Positions 1-47,754 of a stretch of 47,754 nucleotides of DNA are shown piece by piece (the stretch's first letter is position 1; every line of letters begins with the position of its first letter). This DNA is from a virus (lineage: Duplodnaviria; Heunggongvirae; Uroviricota; Caudoviricetes). The position numbers and the translations under genes are program-made. Below the pieces are notes generated by a model. That model saw nothing but the letters and a program-made list of their open reading frames with translations. It had not been told where the DNA came from and searched no databases. The stretch lies in IMG/VR virus record IMGVR_UViG_2778261224_000004. One strand, written 5' to 3'.

Positions 1-77
1 GATATTGTTATAGGGCATAATGTGACCATTGGTTGTAATGCCACCATTCTTGGTGGCAAAGTGCGTATAGGAAACAA
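1..77. repeat. Terminal duplication: bases 1-77 identical to 47678-47754 (circular-closure overlap)
   Basis: Same 77-nt string at both window ends, in the same reading frame of the acetyltransferase gene. Confidence 0.9.
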
Positions 78-183
78 TGTCACAATAGGTGCTCATGCAT
101 TGGTATTGCATGATATTCCTGATGATTCAACATTCATCACTAAATTTCAGTCTGAAGTTATCTGCTCGTCCTCCCGAACATAA
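1..183 (+). CDS. Hexapeptide-repeat (left-handed beta-helix) O-acetyltransferase, C-terminal part; same gene as 47297..47754 across the circular junction
   Basis: Frame-1 translation [42 protein letters not shown]... shows hexapeptide repeats; stop TAA at 181-183. Confidence 0.7.
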
Positions 184-764
184 CCCTGATTCATCAGCTC
201 TGGCCATACGATATCCGGAGCTGTACTGGTGTCAATTCTACTCACTAATACTCTGTATTTTCTCCAGGAATCCAGTTGTGAATTTTCCTCGTTTGTTGCT
301 ATTTCAAGATTAACTGCATCCTGCAGAATTGCGATGTTATCTGTTGCTTCCTGGATCAACCTTGCCTTTTTCTCTTCCGCTTCCCGTATCCGAAACAGTT
401 TTTCTGCTTCCTCATCATTCACCCAGGATACGCCGTCCCACTTCTGATACTCCCCTGCTGGCGACAACCAGGTGACATTCTCTGGTAGCGGTCCGAGTTC
501 AGAAATAAACAATGCGTCCCCCGACGCCACGTCATAGACCGTTTTACCACGATGGTCTTCAACAATATTCCACGATTCATTTTCACTGTTAAAAACTGCC
601 ACAAAGCCAGCAGGAATTTCCGGTGGGGCGATATCTGTAGAATTAGCTGGCAGCCCTGTATGAGGTGGAATATATGCGTCACCTTCACCAATAAACTCAT
701 TAGTTCCGGCCAGCAGGTTATAAATTTTTACGGTACGTGATTGTTCACTCATTCTGAATGCCAT
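147..764 (-). CDS. Tail fibre assembly protein (Tfa-like chaperone)
   Basis: 205-aa ORF immediately downstream of the tail fibre gene; size, position and composition typical of lambda Tfa / P2 G / Mu U chaperones; 3' end overlaps the acetyltransferase 3' end convergently (147-183). Confidence 0.7.
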
Positions 765-3610
765 TATGCAAGCCTCACAATATAATTAAATGCGATGTTT
801 TTAACGGTGTTTTCCGCGTTACCAGCAGCGTTAACGGTGATGGTGTGTCCATGTGAACCAATCTTAACAGAGTGCGTATGAGCGCCAATACCAACAGTGT
901 GTGCATGTGCCCCAGCACTTGTAGCGGTACCTGATACTGAGTGGGTATGTGCGCCAGAAGAAGGCACAGTTCCATTCCCCACCACCGTGCCACTTGATGA
1001 ACCATCCAGCCAGTCGAAATTCATACCGCCACTGTTTGGTCTCCTTAATGGAACGGTATGAGTATGTGCGCCAGCACTATTTGCAGTACCAGATACATTG
1101 TGGGTATGTGCACCTGTGTTATTCGTTGATTTAGTACCGTAATCAAACGACGATGTGGTTTTCGTACCCAAATCCGTACTGGATGCGCTGGCACTGTGGG
1201 TGTGCGATTTAATGCCATCCTGTTCCTGAGACAATACGGCCCGACCACTGGCGGGTTTGCCCTTGATTGTCCAGCCGCGCATATCTGGAATAACACCAGA
1301 AGGATAGGCAATAGCCAGTTTCGGATATGCTGCCTTATCAAACGTCTGCCCCTGCATGATTGCATAACCTGCAGGTGGCGTATCTGATGGCCACGGCAGC
1401 GGAACACCTGGCGGAAACGCTTCAATATTTGCCGAGCCGTCAAATTTTACGCCGTTAATTGTCCTTGCCGTTTTCAGCTTTGTTGCTGTCGCCGCATTGC
1501 CGGACAGTTCACCAGAAAGGCCAGCACTGAATGTCTGTTTCGCGCCCCATGTCTGGGCTTCGTCAATGATTGGTACTCGTCTTGTTGTGATCGTGCGGCT
1601 CCCCGGATTTCCTGAAATGCGCACCATAAAAAAGCGGTAGTTGGCTTTACTTACAGTGCTGCGCCATACATGCATTGAGCGCCCCGTACCGGAATCATCA
1701 CTCGGACCAACTGCGATATTTATCAGGTTGCCATCAATGACGCCCCAGTCCATACCGTCGGGAATATTGGTCATATTATCCAGCCGAACGGTTATCAGAC
1801 TGCCCGGAACAAAGTCGTAGGTCTGCCAGTCCAGGCTGGTGAGCTTTGCCACAGCACCGCCGATACCCAGATTCAGGGGAAGTGAATACGAGGTGTAGAC
1901 TTCCCGCCATTCGCTCCACGAGCTACCGGTATAGGCGCGCTCAAACGTGCGACCTTTAAGGGTTGCACCTGTTCCGGCGGTTGTATAACGTTGCCATACG
2001 TTAACGCCATCAAAGCGCCTCAGCACTTCCAGAATACCGAGTACAGTCACGCCGTTTCCGTCCAGTATTGGACCATTGGTCGCTTTACCTGTAACGCTGT
2101 AAATACCTGGTGAGGTTACATCATTCAAATCACCGTCGTAATAACGGCTTTCTGACTGATGACCGACTCTTAACCACGGTTCCCACTGCGGATTTGATGC
2201 ATCCCAGCTTGCCGCAAGGCAGCGGACATACATATTTCCACGGCGAGTGGTATAACGTTGCGTTCTTCCATAATTTCCGCCTTCGAGGATCTCAAGCATC
2301 CCCTGAGCAAAGCCGCCTTCCTCTGGATAATTGCGTTCATATGAAGCTATAGCTGAGCTACTGTTACGCCATAAACCAAGATGCTCGGCGGCTCCAAGCG
2401 TATTCAGGTCTATAGTCGTACTCAAAGGGCGGGTAGCAGATTGAGTGTGACGCCATACGCCCCACGGACCATCAGTGCCATTCCACTTATTGGCGAGTTT
2501 ACGCATGTATACATTGCCGTCTCTCGTGGTAAAGCGTTGCGTACCTGCAAAATGGCCGGCAGCAAAAACCTCAAGCACACCGACAGCATTATCTTCCGGG
2601 AAATTTTTCTCCAGTGTTGCGTTGGTGGATGTTGCTTTAGACCAGATACCTGAATAAGCCTTAACAGGACCAAACGTATTCAGATCAGCATCAAGCGGCA
2701 TTTCGCCATTGTTTTTCATAAACGTCAGGCTGGTAACGCCAACATTGTCCAGAAAAGCTGATTTATCCTGGATATCTGCACCGTTCTGATTTTTCGCCAG
2801 ACGTGAATTTGCGTTGTCATTTGCTGCCTTGACCGCTTTTGGCGTTGCCGCCTGCGTTTCAGACGTACTGTTAGTGGCACTACTGAGCTGAACTATCCCT
2901 TTTTGTGCCGTGGTGGCATTCTGGGCGGTATATTTTCCGTCAGCCAGGTCATATGCAGCCTTAACAGCCTTAGGCGTCGCTGCGAGCTTTTCAGACGTGC
3001 TATTGGTGGCATTACTGAGTTGAACAATGCCTTTTGATGTTAAAGTTGCATCAGGATGATTACGTGATTGCTCATGTTTTACAATAGCTTGCTTAAGCCG
3101 CTTTGCTGAAACAGCCAGGGAATCATCTGTACCTGCATCAATTTCTTGTTCATTAGCAAATCTTGCTACTCCAACAACAGTTTCGGTTGCGGGAGGGTTA
3201 ATAAACTCAACATCACCAAATGTAATGTTTTTAGTATCAAGATTTTTAATTGCTATATCACTTGATATTAAAGCAATTGTAGAAGATGCTTTATTTATTA
3301 TTACTTGTTCTTGCGAGTATACAGCAAACAATGTTCCTTTATTTGTATACAAACCTATTGTATGGACAACATACTCATCTTTACTATCATCCTTCGCAGT
3401 TACATGAATGGTATCAGGAGAAACGACTTTGCCTCCTATTGTGGTAAGTCGCTTTATTTCATCTGTTATTTTTGTTTGTGTGGTTGATGTGGCATAATAT
3501 CTACTACCTAAACCAACAGAAACGATCTCAACTTTATTTGTTCCAGTCTTGTTGGCATTAACCAGCGCCTTACGCCCGGCGTCAGTCATCGTAAATAATA
3601 ATTTACTCAC
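764..3610 (-). CDS. Tail fibre protein with C-terminal His-x-His repeat tip domain
   Basis: 948-aa ORF; repeated collar-like motifs (KGIVQLSxATNSTSE..[10 protein letters not shown] twice), three paralogous internal modules (..[15 protein letters not shown].. / ..[16 protein letters not shown].. / ..[11 protein letters not shown]..), and C-terminal GAHTHxVSGTA..HTHSV HxH repeats as in T4 gp37-type and lambda Stf-type fibre tips. Confidence 0.85.
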
Positions 3611-3640
3611 GCTTAATTCCTTGGATTAACAAATCGCAAA

Positions 3641-4222
3641 TTAGCACTCACCAATTAATCGTACATAAGACACAGGCTGGAAAGCACCGACAATACCAAC
3701 ACCACCTGAAACATTGGTTGCTTGCGAAAATGTAAATAGTGTTCTTGCCGACTTTGCACTCTTGATACTTCTTAACGTATCCTCCAACATCTCTTTCGAA
3801 GGAACAGCACCATCAAAAGAGTTAATCGAAGCAACAATTGAGGCTGTATATGGTTCGCCAGGTGGTGATGTTTCAAACCATTCTGTTATGTTTACCTCTC
3901 CACCCAAGCTATTTACTACATCTTCAACCGCTGCCCTTGTACCCTTTATTCGCTTTGTTCGTATTATTGATTTAAAAACAGAACGCTTTAACAATACAGG
4001 CCAACTATCCCTCCATGTATCAGCATTCCATTGCCAAGCTAAATGATCGAGAACAACTGAGTCCAGGTTATCAACAACGCTATATATTTCTGTCTTATAT
4101 ATTAAATTGTTAATTGCTTGTAGTTCATCATCAATAGCTTTCGACATAGCTATCACGTTGGGATCGCTAGCTAAGTTAGGAGGTAAAACATCCAACAAGC
4201 TAACATTAAAGATATCAGCCAT
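3641..4222 (-). CDS. Baseplate assembly protein, P2 gpI-like
   Basis: 193-aa ORF between J-like baseplate gene and tail fibre gene, conserved P2/Mu synteny. Confidence 0.6.
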   Translation of the reverse strand: MADIFNVSLLDVLPPNLASDPNVIAMSKAIDDELQAINNLIYKTEIYSVVDNLDSVVLDHLAWQWNADTWRDSWPVLLKRSVFKSIIRTKRIKGTRAAVEDVVNSLGGEVNITEWFETSPPGEPYTASIVASINSFDGAVPSKEMLEDTLRSIKSAKSARTLFTFSQATNVSGGVGIVGAFQPVSYVRLIGEC

Positions 4223-5339
4223 CCTCTAACCCCGCATACTGGCAATTTATATTTCTCTCTCTGGCGACCTGTGTCTCTCCAATCACAGTAAAAACAGGAC
4301 TTGATATTTCTAATCTTTTAGCCCCAGCATTTTTTAAACGTTGAATAATTTCATCTGGATTTATATCTCTTCCCATAACCGAACGTTGCCATTGTTTATA
4401 CTCATCAATAGCTTTCTCAACCTCACTTTGAATTAAAGTTGTTCTGTTTTTGTCCGATGAGTTAATCCAGTATTTAATTATTATATCGTATTCAATGCTC
4501 TCTGGTTTCTTAACAAGAACTTTATCTGTGAATGGTCGAATATTAGTTGCAGAGAGAACGCTATTTATCTGCTCTAATAGTTCATTAGAAGGTATATCTC
4601 CGTTCTCTAACAAAGAACGGATTTCTACAATTCCGGGCGATGGTGTATATACATTCACATCTTTTATATTCTGATTGGCTGTTCTTGTCCAATATTTATA
4701 AGAATCCTCCGGCCCTGCTGTAGACAGTTTTTCCGGCGACAGTTTTATTCTTTCAGCATAATTATCATCTGACTCCGTATCAGCACCAGAATTAGATGTT
4801 GTTACATTCCTTACGCTGGAAACATACGGCAACGGAGTCACCAACTCATTTATTTGCCCTGGTAAAAAGCCATTCCCAGATAAACCAGGTATAACAGCAT
4901 ATCCTGAGACTGTACCAACTGTTTTCCCAGCAGGTATTTCCAACAAAATATCTGTTTGGAAAATAACACCATTTCCAGTTGAAACTTGAGTGCCAGCAGG
5001 TATTGTATATATCCCCGATAATTTTGTTGACAGATTAAACTCAAATGTAGTCAAGGCAGATTGAGCTTCCAGCCTAGGCGTATCCGTCAGATAGCCTATA
5101 TGGTCGAGATATTCACCTTCACCATATGTAAGAAGGTTTTGTTTTGCAGAAAAATCGATAGCTTTTCTTTGCTGTATAATAATCTCACACAATGATAAGA
5201 TGAATAATCTACGTGGATCAGCAGGTGCTAATGTTTCACCTGTTATACTCTCAAAAGCCCTGATTGAACGAGTTGTTATATCAGTCGGGTTAGAATCTGC
5301 GAAAGTAATATCTGGCAAACCACCACGCGGCAACGTCAT
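4215..5339 (-). CDS. Baseplate protein J-like (P2 gpJ / Mu gp47 family)
   Basis: 374-aa ORF, position after gp25-like W gene; size and synteny. Confidence 0.7.
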   Translation of the reverse strand: MTLPRGGLPDITFADSNPTDITTRSIRAFESITGETLAPADPRRLFILSLCEIIIQQRKAIDFSAKQNLLTYGEGEYLDHIGYLTDTPRLEAQSALTTFEFNLSTKLSGIYTIPAGTQVSTGNGVIFQTDILLEIPAGKTVGTVSGYAVIPGLSGNGFLPGQINELVTPLPYVSSVRNVTTSNSGADTESDDNYAERIKLSPEKLSTAGPEDSYKYWTRTANQNIKDVNVYTPSPGIVEIRSLLENGDIPSNELLEQINSVLSATNIRPFTDKVLVKKPESIEYDIIIKYWINSSDKNRTTLIQSEVEKAIDEYKQWQRSVMGRDINPDEIIQRLKNAGAKRLEISSPVFTVIGETQVARERNINCQYAGLEDG

Positions 5340-5656
5340 TCTCTAACTCCTATCACAAGTTTTGGCCTAATAAAACCATCAGAAACGTCCGTTCTTTCAA
5401 AAGTAACAGAATGGATAATCGCTCTAGGCTCAAACTCACTAATTTTTTGAATTATTTCTCGTGTTGCTGTAGCAATAAAAATTGGACTAGGGCTATCAAC
5501 AAGACTTGAATTAATTCCTAATTTTCTGGCATATGGTACAGTGCCAATTTGAGTATTAATAATAGTAGAGACATTTTGCAAAACTTCTTCTACAACTGTT
5601 TTGGGCGACCAATCAATCGAGTAAGAAGGTGATGATATGGTAAACGTATTATTCAT
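5336..5656 (-). CDS. Baseplate wedge protein, GPW/gp25-like
   Basis: 106-aa ORF with gp25/W-like size and motif pattern (..EPRAII..), directly upstream of J-like gene. Confidence 0.65.
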   Translation of the reverse strand: MNNTFTISSPSYSIDWSPKTVVEEVLQNVSTIINTQIGTVPYARKLGINSSLVDSPSPIFIATATREIIQKISEFEPRAIIHSVTFERTDVSDGFIRPKLVIGVRE

Positions 5657-6120
5657 AATAATTTACCTAACGCACTTCTAGTTTTTGACTCTATATTGCC
5701 AGCAATATCAACTAATGCTTCTTTCAGAGAGGTCTGTCCGACTTCCTGTAATTTAATGCCGACGATAATCACTCGTGGATTCCCAGTTGGACCGAAATAA
5801 GTCCATGATTCCTCTATATCTGTAATTATAAAATTACCAAAATACTGAATACCAATTACAACAGGATTTACTTCCTGAATTGATTGCATTGTCCTAAGTA
5901 ATGAAAGCGCAGCCAATGGAACAATGCCAAGTGTTGTATCCAACCGCATATTAAAACTAACTTCATCCAGATCTGGACCTATATCCTCCAGAACAGGTTT
6001 AAGCCCAATAACATCATGGCGCGCTACACGACGCTTTGACGTCCTTTTAAAATTGTTGAACGTATTCACCACTATTGATGAGGCAACAAAAGGCATTGTA
6101 CCAAGCATACCCACAATCAT
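5653..6120 (-). CDS. Hypothetical baseplate-region protein
   Basis: 155-aa ORF between spike and W-like genes, overlapping stop/start coupling with neighbours. Confidence 0.4.
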   Translation of the reverse strand: MIVGMLGTMPFVASSIVVNTFNNFKRTSKRRVARHDVIGLKPVLEDIGPDLDEVSFNMRLDTTLGIVPLAALSLLRTMQSIQEVNPVVIGIQYFGNFIITDIEESWTYFGPTGNPRVIIVGIKLQEVGQTSLKEALVDIAGNIESKTRSALGKLL

Positions 6121-6737
6121 GCCTGAGCCTCCGTTGTCGGAGCGTATTCCCCCTGAGCTGTGTGATGGTGGCCTTTAGATTTAATCCCATCAACATCTAT
6201 ATCACCACCAACAACCTTAACATTCCCAGAAATTGTAGCTGCAACACCTCCAGCAGAAGATCCTTTCATTCCACCTTTGAAGGTTAGTAATCCTTCAACT
6301 GTAGCATTTCCGGTAATGATGGTTTCTGGAGCATCAATAGTTACGGTTCCTGTAGCCTTAATGGTTACATCTCCGACAGCATCAACAAGGAGTAAATTAG
6401 ATTCTCTGTCTATCTCAATACGAGTTCCGTTATTAAATCTAATGACGCGTTTATTAACAGTATTAGATGGCGGCTTCTGTGTTTCATCATAAAAACTACC
6501 AAGAATAAAACCTTGTTGCGGCCCCGCGGGATGAAAGATACACAAAACTTGCTCACCAATATCTGGCATCCAGTAATCAGCATTCTTATCTGTATTTTTC
6601 ACAATAACTGATAACTTTGCCGAAGTGACGTTATCCTGATCATCGAAAGTAACTCTTGCTGTAACATCACCATCATCAATATCAGAAACAACGCCAACTC
6701 TTATAGTCTGACGTAATAATGTTTCTAAATCATTCAT
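6117..6737 (-). CDS. Baseplate central spike protein (P2 gpV / Mu gp45-like)
   Basis: 206-aa ORF; C-terminal Gly/Val-rich beta-helix-like repeats (TIDAPETIITGNATVEG...GGVAATISGNVKVVGGDIDVDG) and His cluster (KGHHHT) typical of spike tips. Confidence 0.65.
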   Translation of the reverse strand: MNDLETLLRQTIRVGVVSDIDDGDVTARVTFDDQDNVTSAKLSVIVKNTDKNADYWMPDIGEQVLCIFHPAGPQQGFILGSFYDETQKPPSNTVNKRVIRFNNGTRIEIDRESNLLLVDAVGDVTIKATGTVTIDAPETIITGNATVEGLLTFKGGMKGSSAGGVAATISGNVKVVGGDIDVDGIKSKGHHHTAQGEYAPTTEAQA

Positions 6738-6739
6738 AA

Positions 6740-7741
6740 TTAATACCCATTAATTACTCTTCGGACATCAATCGAGGTGGTATAACCACTAGTCCCAATT
6801 GAATGCACAGCTTTCGATATAAGATATTTTCCAGAAAATGAACCGAATCCCTCCAGATTTATAGTTACACCAGCTACCAATCTGGTGTCTCCAACCAATA
6901 CTAAAGATCCGGTATTTTGATATCTATTTTTAAGCCGCAAAGCAGCCTTTGCCTTACGTTTTGCTTCATCTAAATTAGCTACCAGTTTTCTTATCTTAAG
7001 ATTCGACCCTTCTTCTACGGATGGATCTACCCAAGTATACGAAAGCGACTTTCTTTTTTTAGGTACGCGATATTTGCACGTGCAACTTTTATACAAATCT
7101 GTAGATTGTGTGCTAAAGCTATATCTGATTATCTCATCAATACCTAACGTAAGCGTAGCGATAGGATCTTTTTGCTCAAACATCTCTTGAGCAAATATTA
7201 TTAATTGGCTATCAGTGACCTTTAACGACAACCCTTCATCCTGGCAAAGTCGATGGAGAAATTTTAAATCGCTTTCCTCCATTTGATCTTCACGCGCATA
7301 ATATGGATTACTATCACCATCAATAAGAAACAACAGTTCAAGGTTAGCTAATTTAGCTATAGAAGTTGCTATATCTTTAAGAGTTGTTTTTTCCCATGCA
7401 TTACTTTTTAAATCACGTCTAATGCCTGATGAAACAGGAACAGAAACAGCAGTTACCTCAACCACAGAAGGTGGTCCAGAGCAAGTTATGCCATCTACCT
7501 GGAATTTCCCGCACTCAAGGACGATTTGATTTATAGGCTTAAAGCTCAAATCAATAAAATCACCCTTTTTAGGTGTCCAGTCTCCAGACCATTTCCCATC
7601 ATCATTTTTTAATATAATAGAAATATCATCGACCTGACCATCTTCATTATCTGTATAAGACATTGACAAAACATCAGGTGACATATGAGCGGTAATATTT
7701 ACATTCTGATATATAACATCAAAAAGCGTTTTACGTAACAC
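6740..7741 (-). CDS. Tail/baseplate hub protein, P2 gpD-like (late control D family)
   Basis: 333-aa ORF downstream of tape measure and LysM-like gene; size and synteny. Confidence 0.5.
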   Translation of the reverse strand: MLRKTLFDVIYQNVNITAHMSPDVLSMSYTDNEDGQVDDISIILKNDDGKWSGDWTPKKGDFIDLSFKPINQIVLECGKFQVDGITCSGPPSVVEVTAVSVPVSSGIRRDLKSNAWEKTTLKDIATSIAKLANLELLFLIDGDSNPYYAREDQMEESDLKFLHRLCQDEGLSLKVTDSQLIIFAQEMFEQKDPIATLTLGIDEIIRYSFSTQSTDLYKSCTCKYRVPKKRKSLSYTWVDPSVEEGSNLKIRKLVANLDEAKRKAKAALRLKNRYQNTGSLVLVGDTRLVAGVTINLEGFGSFSGKYLISKAVHSIGTSGYTTSIDVRRVINGY

Positions 7742-7949
7742 TATTGCGTCTCCACGGAGGAAAATTGTTTACTGATATTGGCATAACCGGAGCATCAGGA
7801 ACTTTAAGAATAATTCCCGCAGAAAAAAGCACCGTAAAGCGGTGCTCAGTATTAGCATCAATAAGAAGATAAGACAGGTACTCATTACCATACAACTTTA
7901 AAGCGATACTATCCCATGAGTCCCCTTGAACCGTTCTATAATCATCCAA
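7731..7949 (-). CDS. Tail protein X-like (LysM-like)
   Basis: 72-aa ORF immediately after tape measure; pattern ..QGDSWDSIALKLYG.. resembles P2 gpX/LysM-type tail proteins. Confidence 0.5.
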   Translation of the reverse strand: MDDYRTVQGDSWDSIALKLYGNEYLSYLLIDANTEHRFTVLFSAGIILKVPDAPVMPISVNNFPPWRRNSVT

Positions 7950-10734
7950 AACTTAATCTCCGTTGTTGGAACATATGAGCACTCAATTTCTTCTCAAAAT
8001 CAGAATATCCCGCATCTAATGCTCTTTTAGCTGCCGCCTCAGTTTCCTTTGGTGAACCAGCCGGAAGATTGATTACAGGTGAATAGGTTATTCCACCAGT
8101 CACAGCGTTAACGTTCTGGCGAGGTCCAGAAGTCCCGGCGGCAGATATCCCGTGAGGTGATAAATTTGATTGCCCGAACTTGCTTGCTATTGCATTCTGT
8201 AAGCTGTTATTCCTGCTAACACCTGATGCCAGAGTAGTCATTATTGCACCACCTGACTTTGTTAGCTGTGAGAATGGACCTTTTTTCGCGTCAGAGAACG
8301 GTAAATACTCACGTACAGAAGAAAAAACGCCTTTCACTTCATTAATTAAAGCATTTGCTTTTGATTTTATCCCAGTGATTAACGTCTCAATTATTTTTGC
8401 GCCTGACTCACTCCAGTTTATTCCAGATAAATAAGTCGTTACAGATTGGAATGCTCTTATAAAGAGTCCAACTGGTGAAAAACGCATAAAAACAGATACC
8501 AGTGTATCTATGATTTTCTTTCCTGTTTCGCTCCAGTTAATGCCAGAAAGGTAATTTGTTGTAATTTTAAATGCTTTAATTAAGAACGGAAGCGGAGACA
8601 TCCATTTAAAAGCACTAATTAATGTACTGTAAATTCTTACACCTGCCGAACTCCAGTTTATGTTGGAAAGATAATCCCATGCTTTACCAAACATAGATAT
8701 AATCCATCCATTGAGGTCAAAGTTTAAGATAAAGTTTTTTATAGCCTCAAATGATTTAACTGTATATTCCTTAACAGAAGGCCAAACTCTGACAGCATAA
8801 TCTCTGATCTTATCCCAATTCTGATAGAGCAATATTCCTGCGGCAACCAGCGCAGATATAGCCATCTGAATCCACCCGAAGGGTGTTAGCTTTGTCGCTA
8901 CAGATAAAGCCAGCATAGCTACCCTACACGCTATAACCACACTTTTCATGGTTAGAAACGCACCTGCCGCCATCACTATCTGAGACACAAAATTGGGGTT
9001 GTTAGCTACAAATTCACTAATTTTTGTAATCAGCGGAACCAAAACACTAAGCGCGGCATTCAAAGCAGGTTGCAAGGCCTGACCAAAACTTAATGATGCA
9101 TTGCTAGCCTGAATACGTAATTGTTTCAATCGCTCCGCATTATCTTTCGTTATGTTGGCAAAATCGCGGTCAATAACAGCACTTCCAGCTCCAAGAGATG
9201 TTGCTTTGATTCTCTGGTATTCCTTCCAGTTTTGAATCATCGGACGAACAAAGTTCTGAACCTGCATATCGCCAAATAGTTCACCAAGTAACTTCTGATC
9301 TCCGTTCTTAGTCATTTTCATGACAGAATGCATTGCAGCTTCGAATGGATTCTTCCCTTTTTTCTGCGCTGTTGTAACAATTTTATATAAATCTACACCG
9401 AAATTTTTCTTTGCTTTTTTTAGTGTTTCAGGGGAAAGTATTTTTGCCAAAAAGTTGTTCATATTATTAGCAGCCTCATCCGAAGTTGCAGCCCCCTTGC
9501 GAGCTATCTGCAAAGCTGCACCCATCGTCGCGGCTGCTTCTTTACCTCCCATTTTTAATGCCTGGAACTGAGCACCAAGCACAGGAAGATTTTTGGCCAT
9601 ATCTTTAAATTCAAAGTTCCCCTCTTTCCCTGCCTGAACCAGAATCCCCATTGCAGACTTCATTTGAGATGGATCAATCTTCAATGAGTCACTTAATGTA
9701 AATGATGCTTTCGAGACATCGAGGATATCAGAGCCAGTAGCTGTAGCTGTTCGCCCAATAGTTAGTAGATTCGCCTGAGCCTCTTTATAATCCTGCCCAG
9801 CAGCGACGAGAAAACCCTGAGCGGCCTGAATATCAGATGCAAACTGGTTGGTAGCCGTTCCGGTAACAAGCATCGCCTGCCCCATCGCCTGAACTTCTTC
9901 CGGCTTCATATCTGCCGTAAGACCAATCATTTTGTTTTCACGATTGAAATTTGCTGCATTGTTAGCAGCAGCAAATGCACCAGCCGCTACAGCACCAGTT
10001 TGTAATCCTGACCTTACAAGTTGACTCTTTGCCTCACCAAGATGCTCTCGCTTCAATTCACGCTGCCTTTCCAACGCGCGGTTTAACTCCTCCTGAGCAC
10101 GTTTTACTGCAAGAACATTTTTCCGTGCTTCAGCCAACGCATTTTTATAGCTGTTAATTTTATCAATACGTTGTTTTTCTAATGCCCGGTTAAGTTCCTC
10201 CTGCTGTTTTTTCACTTGCTGAACATTTGCTCTGGCTAAAGCCAAAGCCGTTCTGTAGCGGTTAACCTGCTCAACGCTACGGGCCTGAGCCTCACGATTA
10301 CGATCAATGCTGGCTTTAAGCTCTTTCTCTCTTGAGGCCAAAGCTCTGGCAGATGTATCAGCTCCCTGATAGGCAGACTTTAAAGCGGCCAGTTCTTCAC
10401 GCTGAGAACGTAGTGATGCTCGTAAATTCGATGAATGTGTTTTTGCCTTCTCAAAGTCACGAAGCATCGCTCTGGTTGGATTGGCCGTGTTTTTTATTTG
10501 CTTCTGTAACTCTTCAACGCGAGCGGCAGCTTTATGATATTCGAGGGCAGTCTGTCCAACCTTTACTTTTACAGATTGTAGCTTTTGAATTTCCCCATGT
10601 TCTTTCGTTAATCCAGCAAGCTCGGCATTTAATTTAGCAACAGCCTGATTAGCTGTAGTAAAACTTTTGGGGAGAGAGGCGGCAACTTTGCCGCCAATTT
10701 CAAAAGCCAGCTTAAAGTTCTTATTGCTGGCCAT
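7942..10734 (-). CDS. Tail tape measure protein
   Basis: 930-aa ORF; long N-terminal coiled-coil-like repeats (..EELNRALE.. repeated), central hydrophobic segments; follows frameshifted chaperone gene. Confidence 0.8.
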   Translation of the reverse strand: MASNKNFKLAFEIGGKVAASLPKSFTTANQAVAKLNAELAGLTKEHGEIQKLQSVKVKVGQTALEYHKAAARVEELQKQIKNTANPTRAMLRDFEKAKTHSSNLRASLRSQREELAALKSAYQGADTSARALASREKELKASIDRNREAQARSVEQVNRYRTALALARANVQQVKKQQEELNRALEKQRIDKINSYKNALAEARKNVLAVKRAQEELNRALERQRELKREHLGEAKSQLVRSGLQTGAVAAGAFAAANNAANFNRENKMIGLTADMKPEEVQAMGQAMLVTGTATNQFASDIQAAQGFLVAAGQDYKEAQANLLTIGRTATATGSDILDVSKASFTLSDSLKIDPSQMKSAMGILVQAGKEGNFEFKDMAKNLPVLGAQFQALKMGGKEAAATMGAALQIARKGAATSDEAANNMNNFLAKILSPETLKKAKKNFGVDLYKIVTTAQKKGKNPFEAAMHSVMKMTKNGDQKLLGELFGDMQVQNFVRPMIQNWKEYQRIKATSLGAGSAVIDRDFANITKDNAERLKQLRIQASNASLSFGQALQPALNAALSVLVPLITKISEFVANNPNFVSQIVMAAGAFLTMKSVVIACRVAMLALSVATKLTPFGWIQMAISALVAAGILLYQNWDKIRDYAVRVWPSVKEYTVKSFEAIKNFILNFDLNGWIISMFGKAWDYLSNINWSSAGVRIYSTLISAFKWMSPLPFLIKAFKITTNYLSGINWSETGKKIIDTLVSVFMRFSPVGLFIRAFQSVTTYLSGINWSESGAKIIETLITGIKSKANALINEVKGVFSSVREYLPFSDAKKGPFSQLTKSGGAIMTTLASGVSRNNSLQNAIASKFGQSNLSPHGISAAGTSGPRQNVNAVTGGITYSPVINLPAGSPKETEAAAKRALDAGYSDFEKKLSAHMFQQRRLSFG

Positions 10735-45852: not shown

Positions 45853-46830
45853 TTAATGTTGGAGTGATTTCCAGGTCTTTCTTAACCTGTTATAACGCTG
45901 CTCAACGAGGGATCGTAAATATGCAAGGTCAGCTCCAGGATACATGCCATCAGCAAATTCCTGGCTAACCTCTCTAGTGATTTGATGACGAAGTTCGGCC
46001 TCTCCCTTTTCCCGAACAAGACGCGCAGCTCTCTCCGCTGCTTTCTGTTTTGCCTTTATCTCTCTGGCCGTCTTCCTCTGATGCCATACATTCTCCATCT
46101 GCTCCTGAATAACAATACGCTTATAATCAGCCTCCGTTATCGCTTTTTTAAGCCGTTCGCTATTCTTCGCATTGAAGTAATTAAGTTTCTGGCTAACCGC
46201 ACGTCTCCATGCTTGTTCAGTAATACCAACGGTTTCCAGCAGTTGATCACGAATCTCTATTTTCGCTGGCCAATACTGTTTATTCACCCGATCCCAGCGA
46301 CGTTCATAATCAATAAAACCTAACGCTTTCAGTTGCGACAATGCCCTTGTACAGCGCGTTATAGACTTGTTCCCAGCTTCGGATACGGTAGACAGGCCGC
46401 AAAAATCAGCCAACGCCTCAGCACTGGCCAGAACCCGCTTAGAAATGATGTTTACATGGTGCAAAATCGCAGCGATCACAGCATTAATCGCCCGACGACG
46501 ATGCTCGTTTATCCGGCGCTTCCGCTCTGACGGTTGATTAACGTAGAACGCAACCTCACACGTAAGATCACGCCCATTAATGCGCTGTAAAGCATCAGAT
46601 AACACCAGCGGCAGCTTGTGCGTATGGTGCTTTGGAGGCTGGAACTCCGGCGACAAATTACAAACGTAAGCTGAACGTAGAGACGGCATTGGTCTATCCA
46701 TATGTTCGCTCTTGCGTCCACGGAAAACCAACGTATAATGGGAGTTGTCGAGGCGCCCATGGTTAGTTGTTGGTTTTCCGTGGATGTCGCAAGAAGCCCG
46801 CAGATTTATCTGCGGGCTTTTTGTTTCCAT
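45853..46830 (-). CDS. repA: Plasmid replication initiator RepA, IncFII (RepFIIA)-like; true start probably internal (Met 46701 or 46692)
   Basis: 325-aa ORF; ..FCGLSTVSEAGNKSITRCTRALSQLKALGFIDYERRWD.. resembles the RepA1 core as recalled; the N-terminal 43 codons overlap the antisense-RNA/leader structures. Confidence 0.6.
   Translation of the reverse strand: METKSPQINLRASCDIHGKPTTNHGRLDNSHYTLVFRGRKSEHMDRPMPSLRSAYVCNLSPEFQPPKHHTHKLPLVLSDALQRINGRDLTCEVAFYVNQPSERKRRINEHRRRAINAVIAAILHHVNIISKRVLASAEALADFCGLSTVSEAGNKSITRCTRALSQLKALGFIDYERRWDRVNKQYWPAKIEIRDQLLETVGITEQAWRRAVSQKLNYFNAKNSERLKKAITEADYKRIVIQEQMENVWHQRKTAREIKAKQKAAERAARLVREKGEAELRHQITREVSQEFADGMYPGADLAYLRSLVEQRYNRLRKTWKSLQH
46746..46826 (+). 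ncRNA. Candidate CopA-like antisense RNA opposite the repA leader
   Basis: Plus-strand TTGCGT-N16-TATAAT (46712-46739) and, about 80 nt downstream, terminator GCCCGCAGA-TTTA-TCTGCGGGC plus TTTTGTTT (46796-46826); perfect 15-bp inverted repeat 46718-46732 / 46768-46782 in the leader. Confidence 0.5.
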
Positions 46831-46881: not shown

Positions 46882-47296
46882 TTTAAGAGAACTCTACCAC
46901 AACACTTTCGGTCATGCACGAAGTCTCTCACTGATCGAACGATAATCCACCAGTAAAAGGATCTAAATTGGATCTCGTTTTGCGAGCATCATACTACTGG
47001 CCTAACTCCAGTCAATGATTCCCAGCCAGAAACCTGCGGTAAACTCATCGTTCAGCAATATGCTGTCCGGCTTCAAAGATAAGGTGACATCATCCCTTAA
47101 CAGCGCGGCCAGTTCAGTTAAAGGGCTGTTCTGATTTAATGCTGGCCACTCATACCTGGTAATAAGTGGTCAGTCTTAACACTCACCATTTGATTGCACC
47201 CGTGTTGACGATTTGTTACTGGATATCAGACACGCTGGATAGCCAGTAGAAACATACCATTAAAATTATTACAATAATTGGTCACATGATTATCTT

Positions 47297-47754
47297 ATGC
47301 TGAATAATAAAGATATGAATATTAATGAACTTAAAGACTGTATTCACTATGAAGTAATCGGTAGCGAGCGTCCTTTCTCCTGGCGAAAGGCAATTGTTCG
47401 CGCAATAAAACATAGAAGGGTTCGTTATTTATTTTGGTGGCGCATAGCCAAATACCTTTTTGATAAAGGCGGATACTGTCGGAAGATTGCGGGAAAAATA
47501 GAACGTTTCATTCTTGATAAATATAATGTAACAGTCCCTTTAACTGTAAATATAGGGAAAGGCTTTGATATTTCTTATCTCAACAGTGTTGTTATCGGTC
47601 ACAAAGTAACAATCGGTGAAAATTGTTCAATTAAGCCCGGAGTAACTATTGGACTTCGCGGGGAATTTAATGATATGGATATTGTTATAGGGCATAATGT
47701 GACCATTGGTTGTAATGCCACCATTCTTGGTGGCAAAGTGCGTATAGGAAACAA
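47297..47754 (+). CDS. Hexapeptide-repeat O-acetyltransferase, N-terminal part (continues at 78..183 across the circular junction; about 187 aa in total)
   Basis: ATG at 47297; translation MLNNKDMNINELKDC...GKGFDISYLNSVVIGHKVTIGENCSIKPGVTIGL... with hexapeptide repeats; reads in frame into the terminal duplication. Confidence 0.75.
   Translation, partial: MLNNKDMNINELKDCIHYEVIGSERPFSWRKAIVRAIKHRRVRYLFWWRIAKYLFDKGGYCRKIAGKIERFILDKYNVTVPLTVNIGKGFDISYLNSVVIGHKVTIGENCSIKPGVTIGLRGEFNDMDIVIGHNVTIGCNATILGGKVRIGN

Follow-up and report, generated by a model that had tools for sequence, protein, structure and literature searches.

Several described systems bear on the tail fibre considered here. In T4 gp37 and the pyocin fibres, His-x-His (HxH) motifs form octahedral iron sites of the His6 type along the axis of the trimer (PMC6116203), and residues 932-959 of T4 gp37 contact the receptor, the distal tip of the needle determining OmpC/lipopolysaccharide (LPS) recognition in T4 and its relatives (PMC9603124). 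The chaperones of Ur-lambda and Mu belong to the TFA family and stay in the virion (PMC9608196). Mosaicism, HxH needles, knobs and Tfa chaperones are already established, and all parts of the fibre described below belong to known families. The fibre gene lies in IMG/VR virus record IMGVR_UViG_2778261224_000004, a Caudoviricetes sequence of 47,754 nt, the whole of which is called the window here. We consider it about 85% probable that the gene encodes a recombinant receptor-binding fibre of a contractile-tailed temperate phage with a P2/Mu-like baseplate, and that this phage is kept as a circular plasmid of ~47.7 kb. The coordinates of the features are collected in Table 1.

The C-terminus of the fibre is closely related to the receptor-binding tips of T4 gp37 and lambda Stf. 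Residues 716-948 match the gp37 tip structure (PDB 2XGF, chain residues 16-242) with a phmmer E value of 2.8e-82 and 62% identity across 232 residues in BLASTP, and identity of the tip to lambda Stf orf-314 amounts to 64%. As in gp37, the tip consists of a collar followed by a needle with the same C-terminal strand. The needle contains exactly seven HxH motifs, at residues 803, 835, 849, 888, 902, 911 and 920 (five HTH, one HAH and one HGH), all seven of which are in register with the seven of gp37 and would correspond to its iron sites. When the last 169 residues were shuffled in 20,000 trials, the mean number of HxH motifs was 1.06 and the maximum was 6, and seven was never reached. A first-pass annotation of the sequence had proposed a 948-residue fibre ending in at least six HTH/AHTH repeats of the HxH type, had placed a Tfa-type chaperone gene directly downstream, and had suggested alignment with the T4 and lambda tips as a check; the intact reading frame, these alignments and the chaperone gene described below bear out each of these points, and the C-terminus does resemble known HxH tips. 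The short gp37/Stf repeat PF03335 was found in the needle by Pfam, and the DNA at 893-955 is 78% identical to that at 1052-1114; judged from this likeness, the needle's halves arose long ago by an internal duplication.

The fibre parts company with both T4 and lambda at the very end of the needle. The distal tip insert of this fibre aligns with gp37 residues 932-959, the 28-30-residue OmpC/LPS-binding tip of T4, and shares 3 identical positions with it, and the DNA match to lambda is broken at 896-1124, the same stretch as the distal tip. Since the insert has diverged and the rest of the needle aligns, with the conserved C-terminal strand retained, the scaffold is conserved and the predicted receptor-contact tip is different; the receptor is therefore probably different from those of T4 and lambda as well. 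The remainder of the fibre is unrelated to the long shaft of gp37. Lambda (Ur-lambda) shares the stf-tfa gene order and about 83% DNA identity through both genes, but its needle is longer and has insertions, with eight HxH motifs in the alignment, its fibre, a side fibre, sits on a non-contractile tail, and further differences lie in its tip insert and in the final ~17 residues of its Tfa.

The gene directly downstream of the fibre gene encodes the chaperone, and the two genes overlap in the sequence TAATG, in which the TAA stop codon of the fibre gene overlaps the ATG of tfa at nt 764. Its product matches Caudo_TAP (PF02413) with 136 bits (cut-off 22.1; E 1.1e-39) and PHROG 105 with an E value of 1e-93, and is 81% identical to lambda Tfa across 188 residues. 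Translation of tfa is probably coupled to that of the fibre gene. In T4 the corresponding role falls to gp38/gp57A rather than to a Tfa protein, and lambda Tfa is able to substitute for T4 gp38.

At its other end the fibre belongs to a different lineage. The fibre gene starts with GTG, with a GGAA ribosome-binding site eight bases ahead, and its product matches PHROG 295 'tail fiber protein' (E 2e-221), with many further fibre families matching separate sub-regions. The gene that precedes it (3641..4222) encodes a Tail_P2_I homologue, and a Baseplate_J homologue is also encoded upstream (both by Pfam), so the fibre is that of a P2/Mu-type contractile tail. The N-terminus has 86% protein identity to that of the Yersinia phage vB_YpM_41, and a PF12571 match in this region is weak and under the cut-off. 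An additional open reading frame (ORF) of 132 residues, 1045..1443 on the minus strand, is nested inside the fibre gene in another frame, with no sign among the observations made that it is a gene.

The first 77 nt of the window are identical to the last 77 (47678-47754), so the window represents a whole circular element, about 47,677 bp long and opened within an acetyltransferase gene. An IncFII-type RepA is encoded at 45853-46830 on the minus strand (PF02387, E 1e-43), which shows that this tailed-phage genome is maintained as a plasmid, and in near-identical plasmids a RelE/ParE toxin-antitoxin pair adjoins RepA. Twenty-five complete E. coli genomes contain near-identical circular plasmids, 47-49 kb in size, at a coverage of at least 80%; the 15 that were listed are 98.6-98.7% identical to the window, and the same configuration is present in 19 PLSDB plasmids with an identity of at least 98.7%. 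Near-identical fibre and chaperone genes have already been deposited with the annotation Stf/Tfa.

The recombinant nature of the fibre is evident from comparison of the window with its sisters, among them vB_YpM_41 and the 48.5-kb plasmid of E. coli ATCC 25922. Their alignment with the window is confined to the stretch that begins at nt 2816, running rightwards, and ends at 47043, with 94-96% nucleotide identity from nt 2816 onward for the sister plasmids. The segment that they lack, from 47044 through the origin to ~2900, comprises the knobs, the tip, tfa and the acetyltransferase gene, and is instead 94-96% identical to the P2-like plasmid pZ1323PEC0009-2, and the part of it that runs from 47227 to 2742 shows 95% identity to P1-like phage-plasmids as well. 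The GC content (guanine plus cytosine) changes along the same lines, from 39% in the fibre gene's N-terminal part and in the baseplate genes to 50-51% in the knob and tip parts and 46% in tfa; the backbone is of low GC content (37-40% in the structural genes). The comparison of fibre C-termini that had been proposed at the outset thus finds a different C-terminus on the same backbone in the sisters and the same cassette in P2-like and P1-like elements.

The two junctions differ in kind. The left junction (47043/47044) is abrupt and has no evident homology. The right junction lies inside the second (distal) of the two PF03406 repeats, where backbone and donor are alike: similarity to the backbone starts at 2816 and similarity to the P2-like plasmid ends at 2907, so that the two overlap in the distal unit. 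On these alignments, the distal PF03406 unit is the site of a homologous crossover between the backbone and the imported cassette. The two units are visible in the DNA as a direct repeat (2816-2903 and 2948-3035) with 80% identity and a spacing of 132 nt. They had first been described as duplicated collar-like motifs; the duplication is real, but its units are PF03406 repeats, and the true Collar domain, PF07484, is present once. When reference phages are taken for comparison, another boundary lies in the conserved linker ahead of the collar, where the P2-like match stops at nt 1455 and the lambda match starts at nt 1420.

The sisters carry an invertase-driven switch where this element has its cassette. 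Their module consists of a fibre end with tfa, an opposed tfa' with a second fibre end, and a DNA invertase (Sv/U-U'/Sv'), with gix-like inverted repeats 3 kb apart, which in vB_YpM_41 lie at 1317-1371 and 4380-4434. In the ATCC 25922 plasmid the invertible fibre module spans 1647-6795, and its alternative fibre end is unannotated in the PLSDB table. The invertible segments of Mu (G/Gin), P1 (C/Cin) and the sisters share with this locus the same genomic position and the motif NQNGADI near the border of the constant and variable parts. The locus differs from all of these in that the switch has been deleted: the window holds the 10 terminal codons of a Hin/Gin-type invertase gene, at the left edge of the cassette, and no intact invertase gene. 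At 5638-10309 the P1-like phage-plasmid NZ_LR890336.1 also holds this variable part of the fibre together with tfa and the acetyltransferase gene; over a 14.7-kb stretch of it, the incomplete gene table of PLSDB lists neither an invertase nor a second fibre end. The fixed cassette may have replaced a switch in that element too.

Between the PF03406 repeats and the tip lies a tandem array of three related units. The first-pass annotation described three diverged copies of ~60 residues; the repeats are there and copies 1 and 2 are clear duplicates, but the unit is ~90 residues long, and copy 3 is weak in sequence and does not have the full core. The motif QR[FY]TT is found three times, at residues 358, 451 and 540, copy 3 being without the 'TTR.G..Y.R' portion. 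Domains 1 and 2 are 40% identical across 90 residues (E 1.7e-22; z = 30 against shuffles), with an hhalign probability of 99.8%. Domain 3 gives BLAST E values of 0.005 to domain 1 and 0.15 (non-significant) to domain 2, and hhalign probabilities of 84% (E 8e-6) and 66% (E 6e-5), respectively, over about 45 columns. The duplication was seen by segment-wise BLAST and shuffles; self-BLAST of the whole protein gave no off-diagonal pairs.

The structure prediction that had been suggested as a check was run on this array and leads to knob-bearing fibres. An AlphaFold2 (AF2) monomer model of the three domains, built with 25 homologues, has a predicted local distance difference test score (pLDDT) of about 70-85 per unit and an overall predicted template-modelling score (pTM) of 0.33. 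In a Foldseek search of the PDB, the array model matched, with a probability of 1.00, 6CL6 (R2 pyocin; E 1.3e-6), 6CL5 (R1 pyocin; 4.5e-6) and 5EFV (2.3e-6); the best matches span E values of 1e-6 to 2e-4, include 6V8I, 9EUF and 6IAB, and correspond to the receptor-binding proteins of 80alpha and phi11, the R2 and R1 pyocin fibres, baseplate proteins of phi812 and the P68 fibre, all of them matches to the whole array and not to single domains, with low TM-scores since the relative orientation of the domains is unmodelled. At NCBI, many close homologues bear the name 'pyocin knob domain-containing protein'. We therefore read the three ~90-residue units, from sequence and model together, as putative tandem knob domains, unit 3 being less certain than units 1 and 2. 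No module matched a curated knob model in Pfam or NCBIfam at E values up to 1-10, and a PDB sequence search with the middle region of the fibre returned chance-level matches only. The pyocin fibres PA0620 and PLES_06171 (6CL6, 6CL5 and 6CU2) have two knobs, unlike the three to four found here; these fibres and the staphylococcal receptor-binding proteins (5EFV, 6V8I and 9EUF) have no detectable sequence similarity to the array (12-16% identity in structural alignments), and the present fibre ends in a gp37-type needle and not in a lectin-fold foot.

The array is followed by a fourth beta domain of ~100 residues that may be knob-like. It has no hhalign link to domains 1-3, also with a deeper profile, the Pfam and NCBIfam scans gave nothing usable for it, and a profile search of PDB sequences gave chance-level matches only. 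This domain may stand for a family of fibre knobs that has not been catalogued. Weak YTH and lipocalin matches that appeared in the scans of the modules and of the fourth domain were taken as chance.

Peduovirus fibres are close relatives over this middle region, their DNA being 92-94% identical to that for residues ~240-718 in several records. Peduovirus gpH and the P1-like S fibres differ from the present fibre in its N-terminal anchor, which comes from a different, low-GC phage-plasmid backbone. The canonical P2 gpH has 669 residues, is not known to have these knobs and has a Mu-type tip end. The domain map of canonical gpH, given in a preprint on the P2 virion, was not transferred to this fibre; the Peduovirus P2 records OU784746 and NC_070906 have a 919-residue variant fibre.

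An alternative to specificity residing in the distal tip is that it comes mainly from the knob array, by sugar binding along the shaft, with the HxH tip in a secondary role. The R1 and R2 pyocin fibres offer a precedent, since Knob2 is their most variable surface and appears to be weightier than the C-terminal domain for the killing spectrum (PMC6116203), and the knob array does move together with the tip inside the cassette. Yet in T4-type fibres the OmpC/LPS determinants sit in the distal needle tip (PMC9603124), and it is the tip insert of the present fibre that is most diverged from T4 and lambda, whereas the knob array is 88-98% identical in many E. coli fibres that have other C-termini. 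We regard a leading role of the knobs as unlikely on balance.

That the chimeric fibre is a non-functional relic of a defective phage-plasmid seems more improbable still. We have seen no virion evidence for this exact element, and the replacement left behind a truncated invertase gene. Against decay stand the intact 948-codon ORF with its ribosome-binding site and coupled tfa, the preservation of all seven HxH motifs and of the C-terminal strand, and the retention of the arrangement in those 19 independent plasmids and 25 complete E. coli genomes; moreover, the junctions sit at domain boundaries that other natural fibres use.

An active programmed switch of host range, whether an invertible segment or another generator of diversity, is very improbable at this locus and was rejected even though sisters of the same backbone have one at this position, given that beyond the invertase remnant the window has no inverted repeats in 1-3700, no gix-like site anywhere at up to 3 mismatches, and no second tfa or alternative fibre end beside the single tfa. 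The recombinational host-range switching suggested earlier holds in the sense that recombinational exchange is seen directly; what it amounts to is an evolutionary replacement that removed an active invertase switch and left no mechanism for ongoing switching.

Our preferred interpretation, a recombinant fibre acquired by a contractile-tailed phage-plasmid, suggests how the protein may be built and how it arose. The ~135 N-terminal residues would dock on the baseplate wedge protein, the gpI/Tail_P2_I homologue encoded just upstream, and would be followed by the two PF03406 repeats, the three homologous knobs and the fourth probable knob, the knobs making a beaded shaft that may add sugar contacts. 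The C-terminal 230 residues would form the collar and a long needle of a homotrimer, in which three chains contribute to each of seven HxH layers and each layer holds one iron ion; the chain would turn at the 30-residue distal tip, where the receptor would be contacted. Tfa is probably needed for folding and trimerisation of the tip. The ancestor would have had an invertase-switched fibre end. The stretch that begins in the second PF03406 repeat and stops near the invertase gene's end was exchanged for a fixed cassette of ~50% GC, one that moves about among the P2-like and P1-like elements of E. coli.

Several points weigh against this interpretation. The P2-like and P1-like records, being ~94-95% identical to the cassette, are relatives of the donor and not the donor itself, and we infer the direction and the number of the transfer events. 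The structure models are of monomers, yet the protein folds as an intertwined trimer; the pTM of the array is low (0.33), its fold matches are not divided by domain, and knob 3 depends on weak sequence signals. The trimer, the change of receptor, the iron and the dependence on Tfa are argued from homology only, unlike the domain homologies, the order of the genes, the mosaic boundaries and the invertase loss, which are shown. Finally, the closest phage record, vB_EcoM-613R2, is known here from its record and not as an isolated virion.

Table 1. Features of the fibre locus, with positions in the window and the evidence for each
Feature	Position (nt)	Strand	Evidence
Tail fibre gene, 948 residues	764..3610	-	ORF list; PHROG 295; start context
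N-terminal baseplate-attachment region (putative), approx. residues 1-135	3206..3610	-	specific to phage-plasmid backbone; 39% GC
Two PF03406 'phage tail fibre repeat' units, approx. residues 190-274	2789..3043	-	Pfam E 4.5e-41, two stretches
Knob-type domain 1 (putative), approx. residues 303-395	2426..2704	-	40% identity with domain 2; AF2 pLDDT about 77-84
Knob-type domain 2 (putative), approx. residues 396-489	2144..2425	-	homology to domain 1 (BLAST, hhalign); AF2; Foldseek of array
Knob-type domain 3 (putative, diverged), approx. residues 490-577	1880..2143	-	hhalign, BLAST; AF2 pLDDT about 71-85, similar strand pattern
Fourth beta domain of ~100 residues, residues 578-700	1511..1879	-	may be knob-like
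Conserved linker, residues 701-730	1421..1510	-	Peduovirus fibre similarity stops, lambda Stf similarity starts
Collar domain, approx. residues 731-800	1211..1420	-	PF07484 E 3.4e-10 at residues 735-782; aligned with 2XGF collar
Needle with seven HxH motifs, residues 801-925	836..1210	-	HxH positions; gp37 alignment; PF03335 repeat; DNA duplication
Distal tip insert, predicted receptor-contact region, residues 852-881	968..1057	-	diverged from T4 and lambda
Tfa tail fibre assembly chaperone gene, 205 residues	147..764	-	PF02413; PHROG 105; lambda Tfa identity; junction
Hexapeptide-repeat (LbetaH) O-acetyltransferase gene	47315..47754 (5' part), continuing at 78..183 (3' part; copy 1..183)	+	terminal overlap; ORF
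DNA-invertase remnant, last 10 codons	47015..47044	-	tblastn with Hin of vB_YpM_41; left cassette edge

The third gene of the cassette encodes the acetyltransferase. Its product matches Pfam Hexapep (E 1e-12) and PHROG 2154, a family of unknown function (E 3e-78), and resembles EpsC, CysE and WcaB at scores under all curated cut-offs; in near-identical plasmids it is labelled 'transferase / serine acetyltransferase'. The gene is convergent with tfa, with a 37-nt overlap at the 3' end of the latter, and the transferase-tfa pair is present, mainly on chromosomes, in 210 of 5,426 complete E. coli genomes. The acetyltransferase may be a surface-polysaccharide modification gene or an exclusion gene. 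A tentative and rather doubtful extension is that tip, chaperone and acetyltransferase form a functional unit, in which the enzyme modifies the polysaccharide that the fibre recognises and selection keeps the three genes together. If that is the case, lysogens would be shielded from superinfection and released virions would not be wasted on sibling cells, and the unit would move between three kinds of element that are unrelated to one another (the 47-kb IncFII-RepA phage-plasmids, the P2-like and the P1-like elements), in each taking the place of invertase-driven switches.

The locus provides a worked example of one phage-plasmid backbone that has solved host recognition in two ways: the sisters switch between a pair of fibre ends by means of an invertase, and this element has a fixed tip of the lambda/T4 type. 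Both recombination junctions can be placed with single-base precision. For the engineering and prediction of host range, the PF03406 repeat and the ATKLKTAR...FDGSANI linker are natural, tolerated points of splicing, and the 30-residue tip insert is the part that likely sets the receptor.

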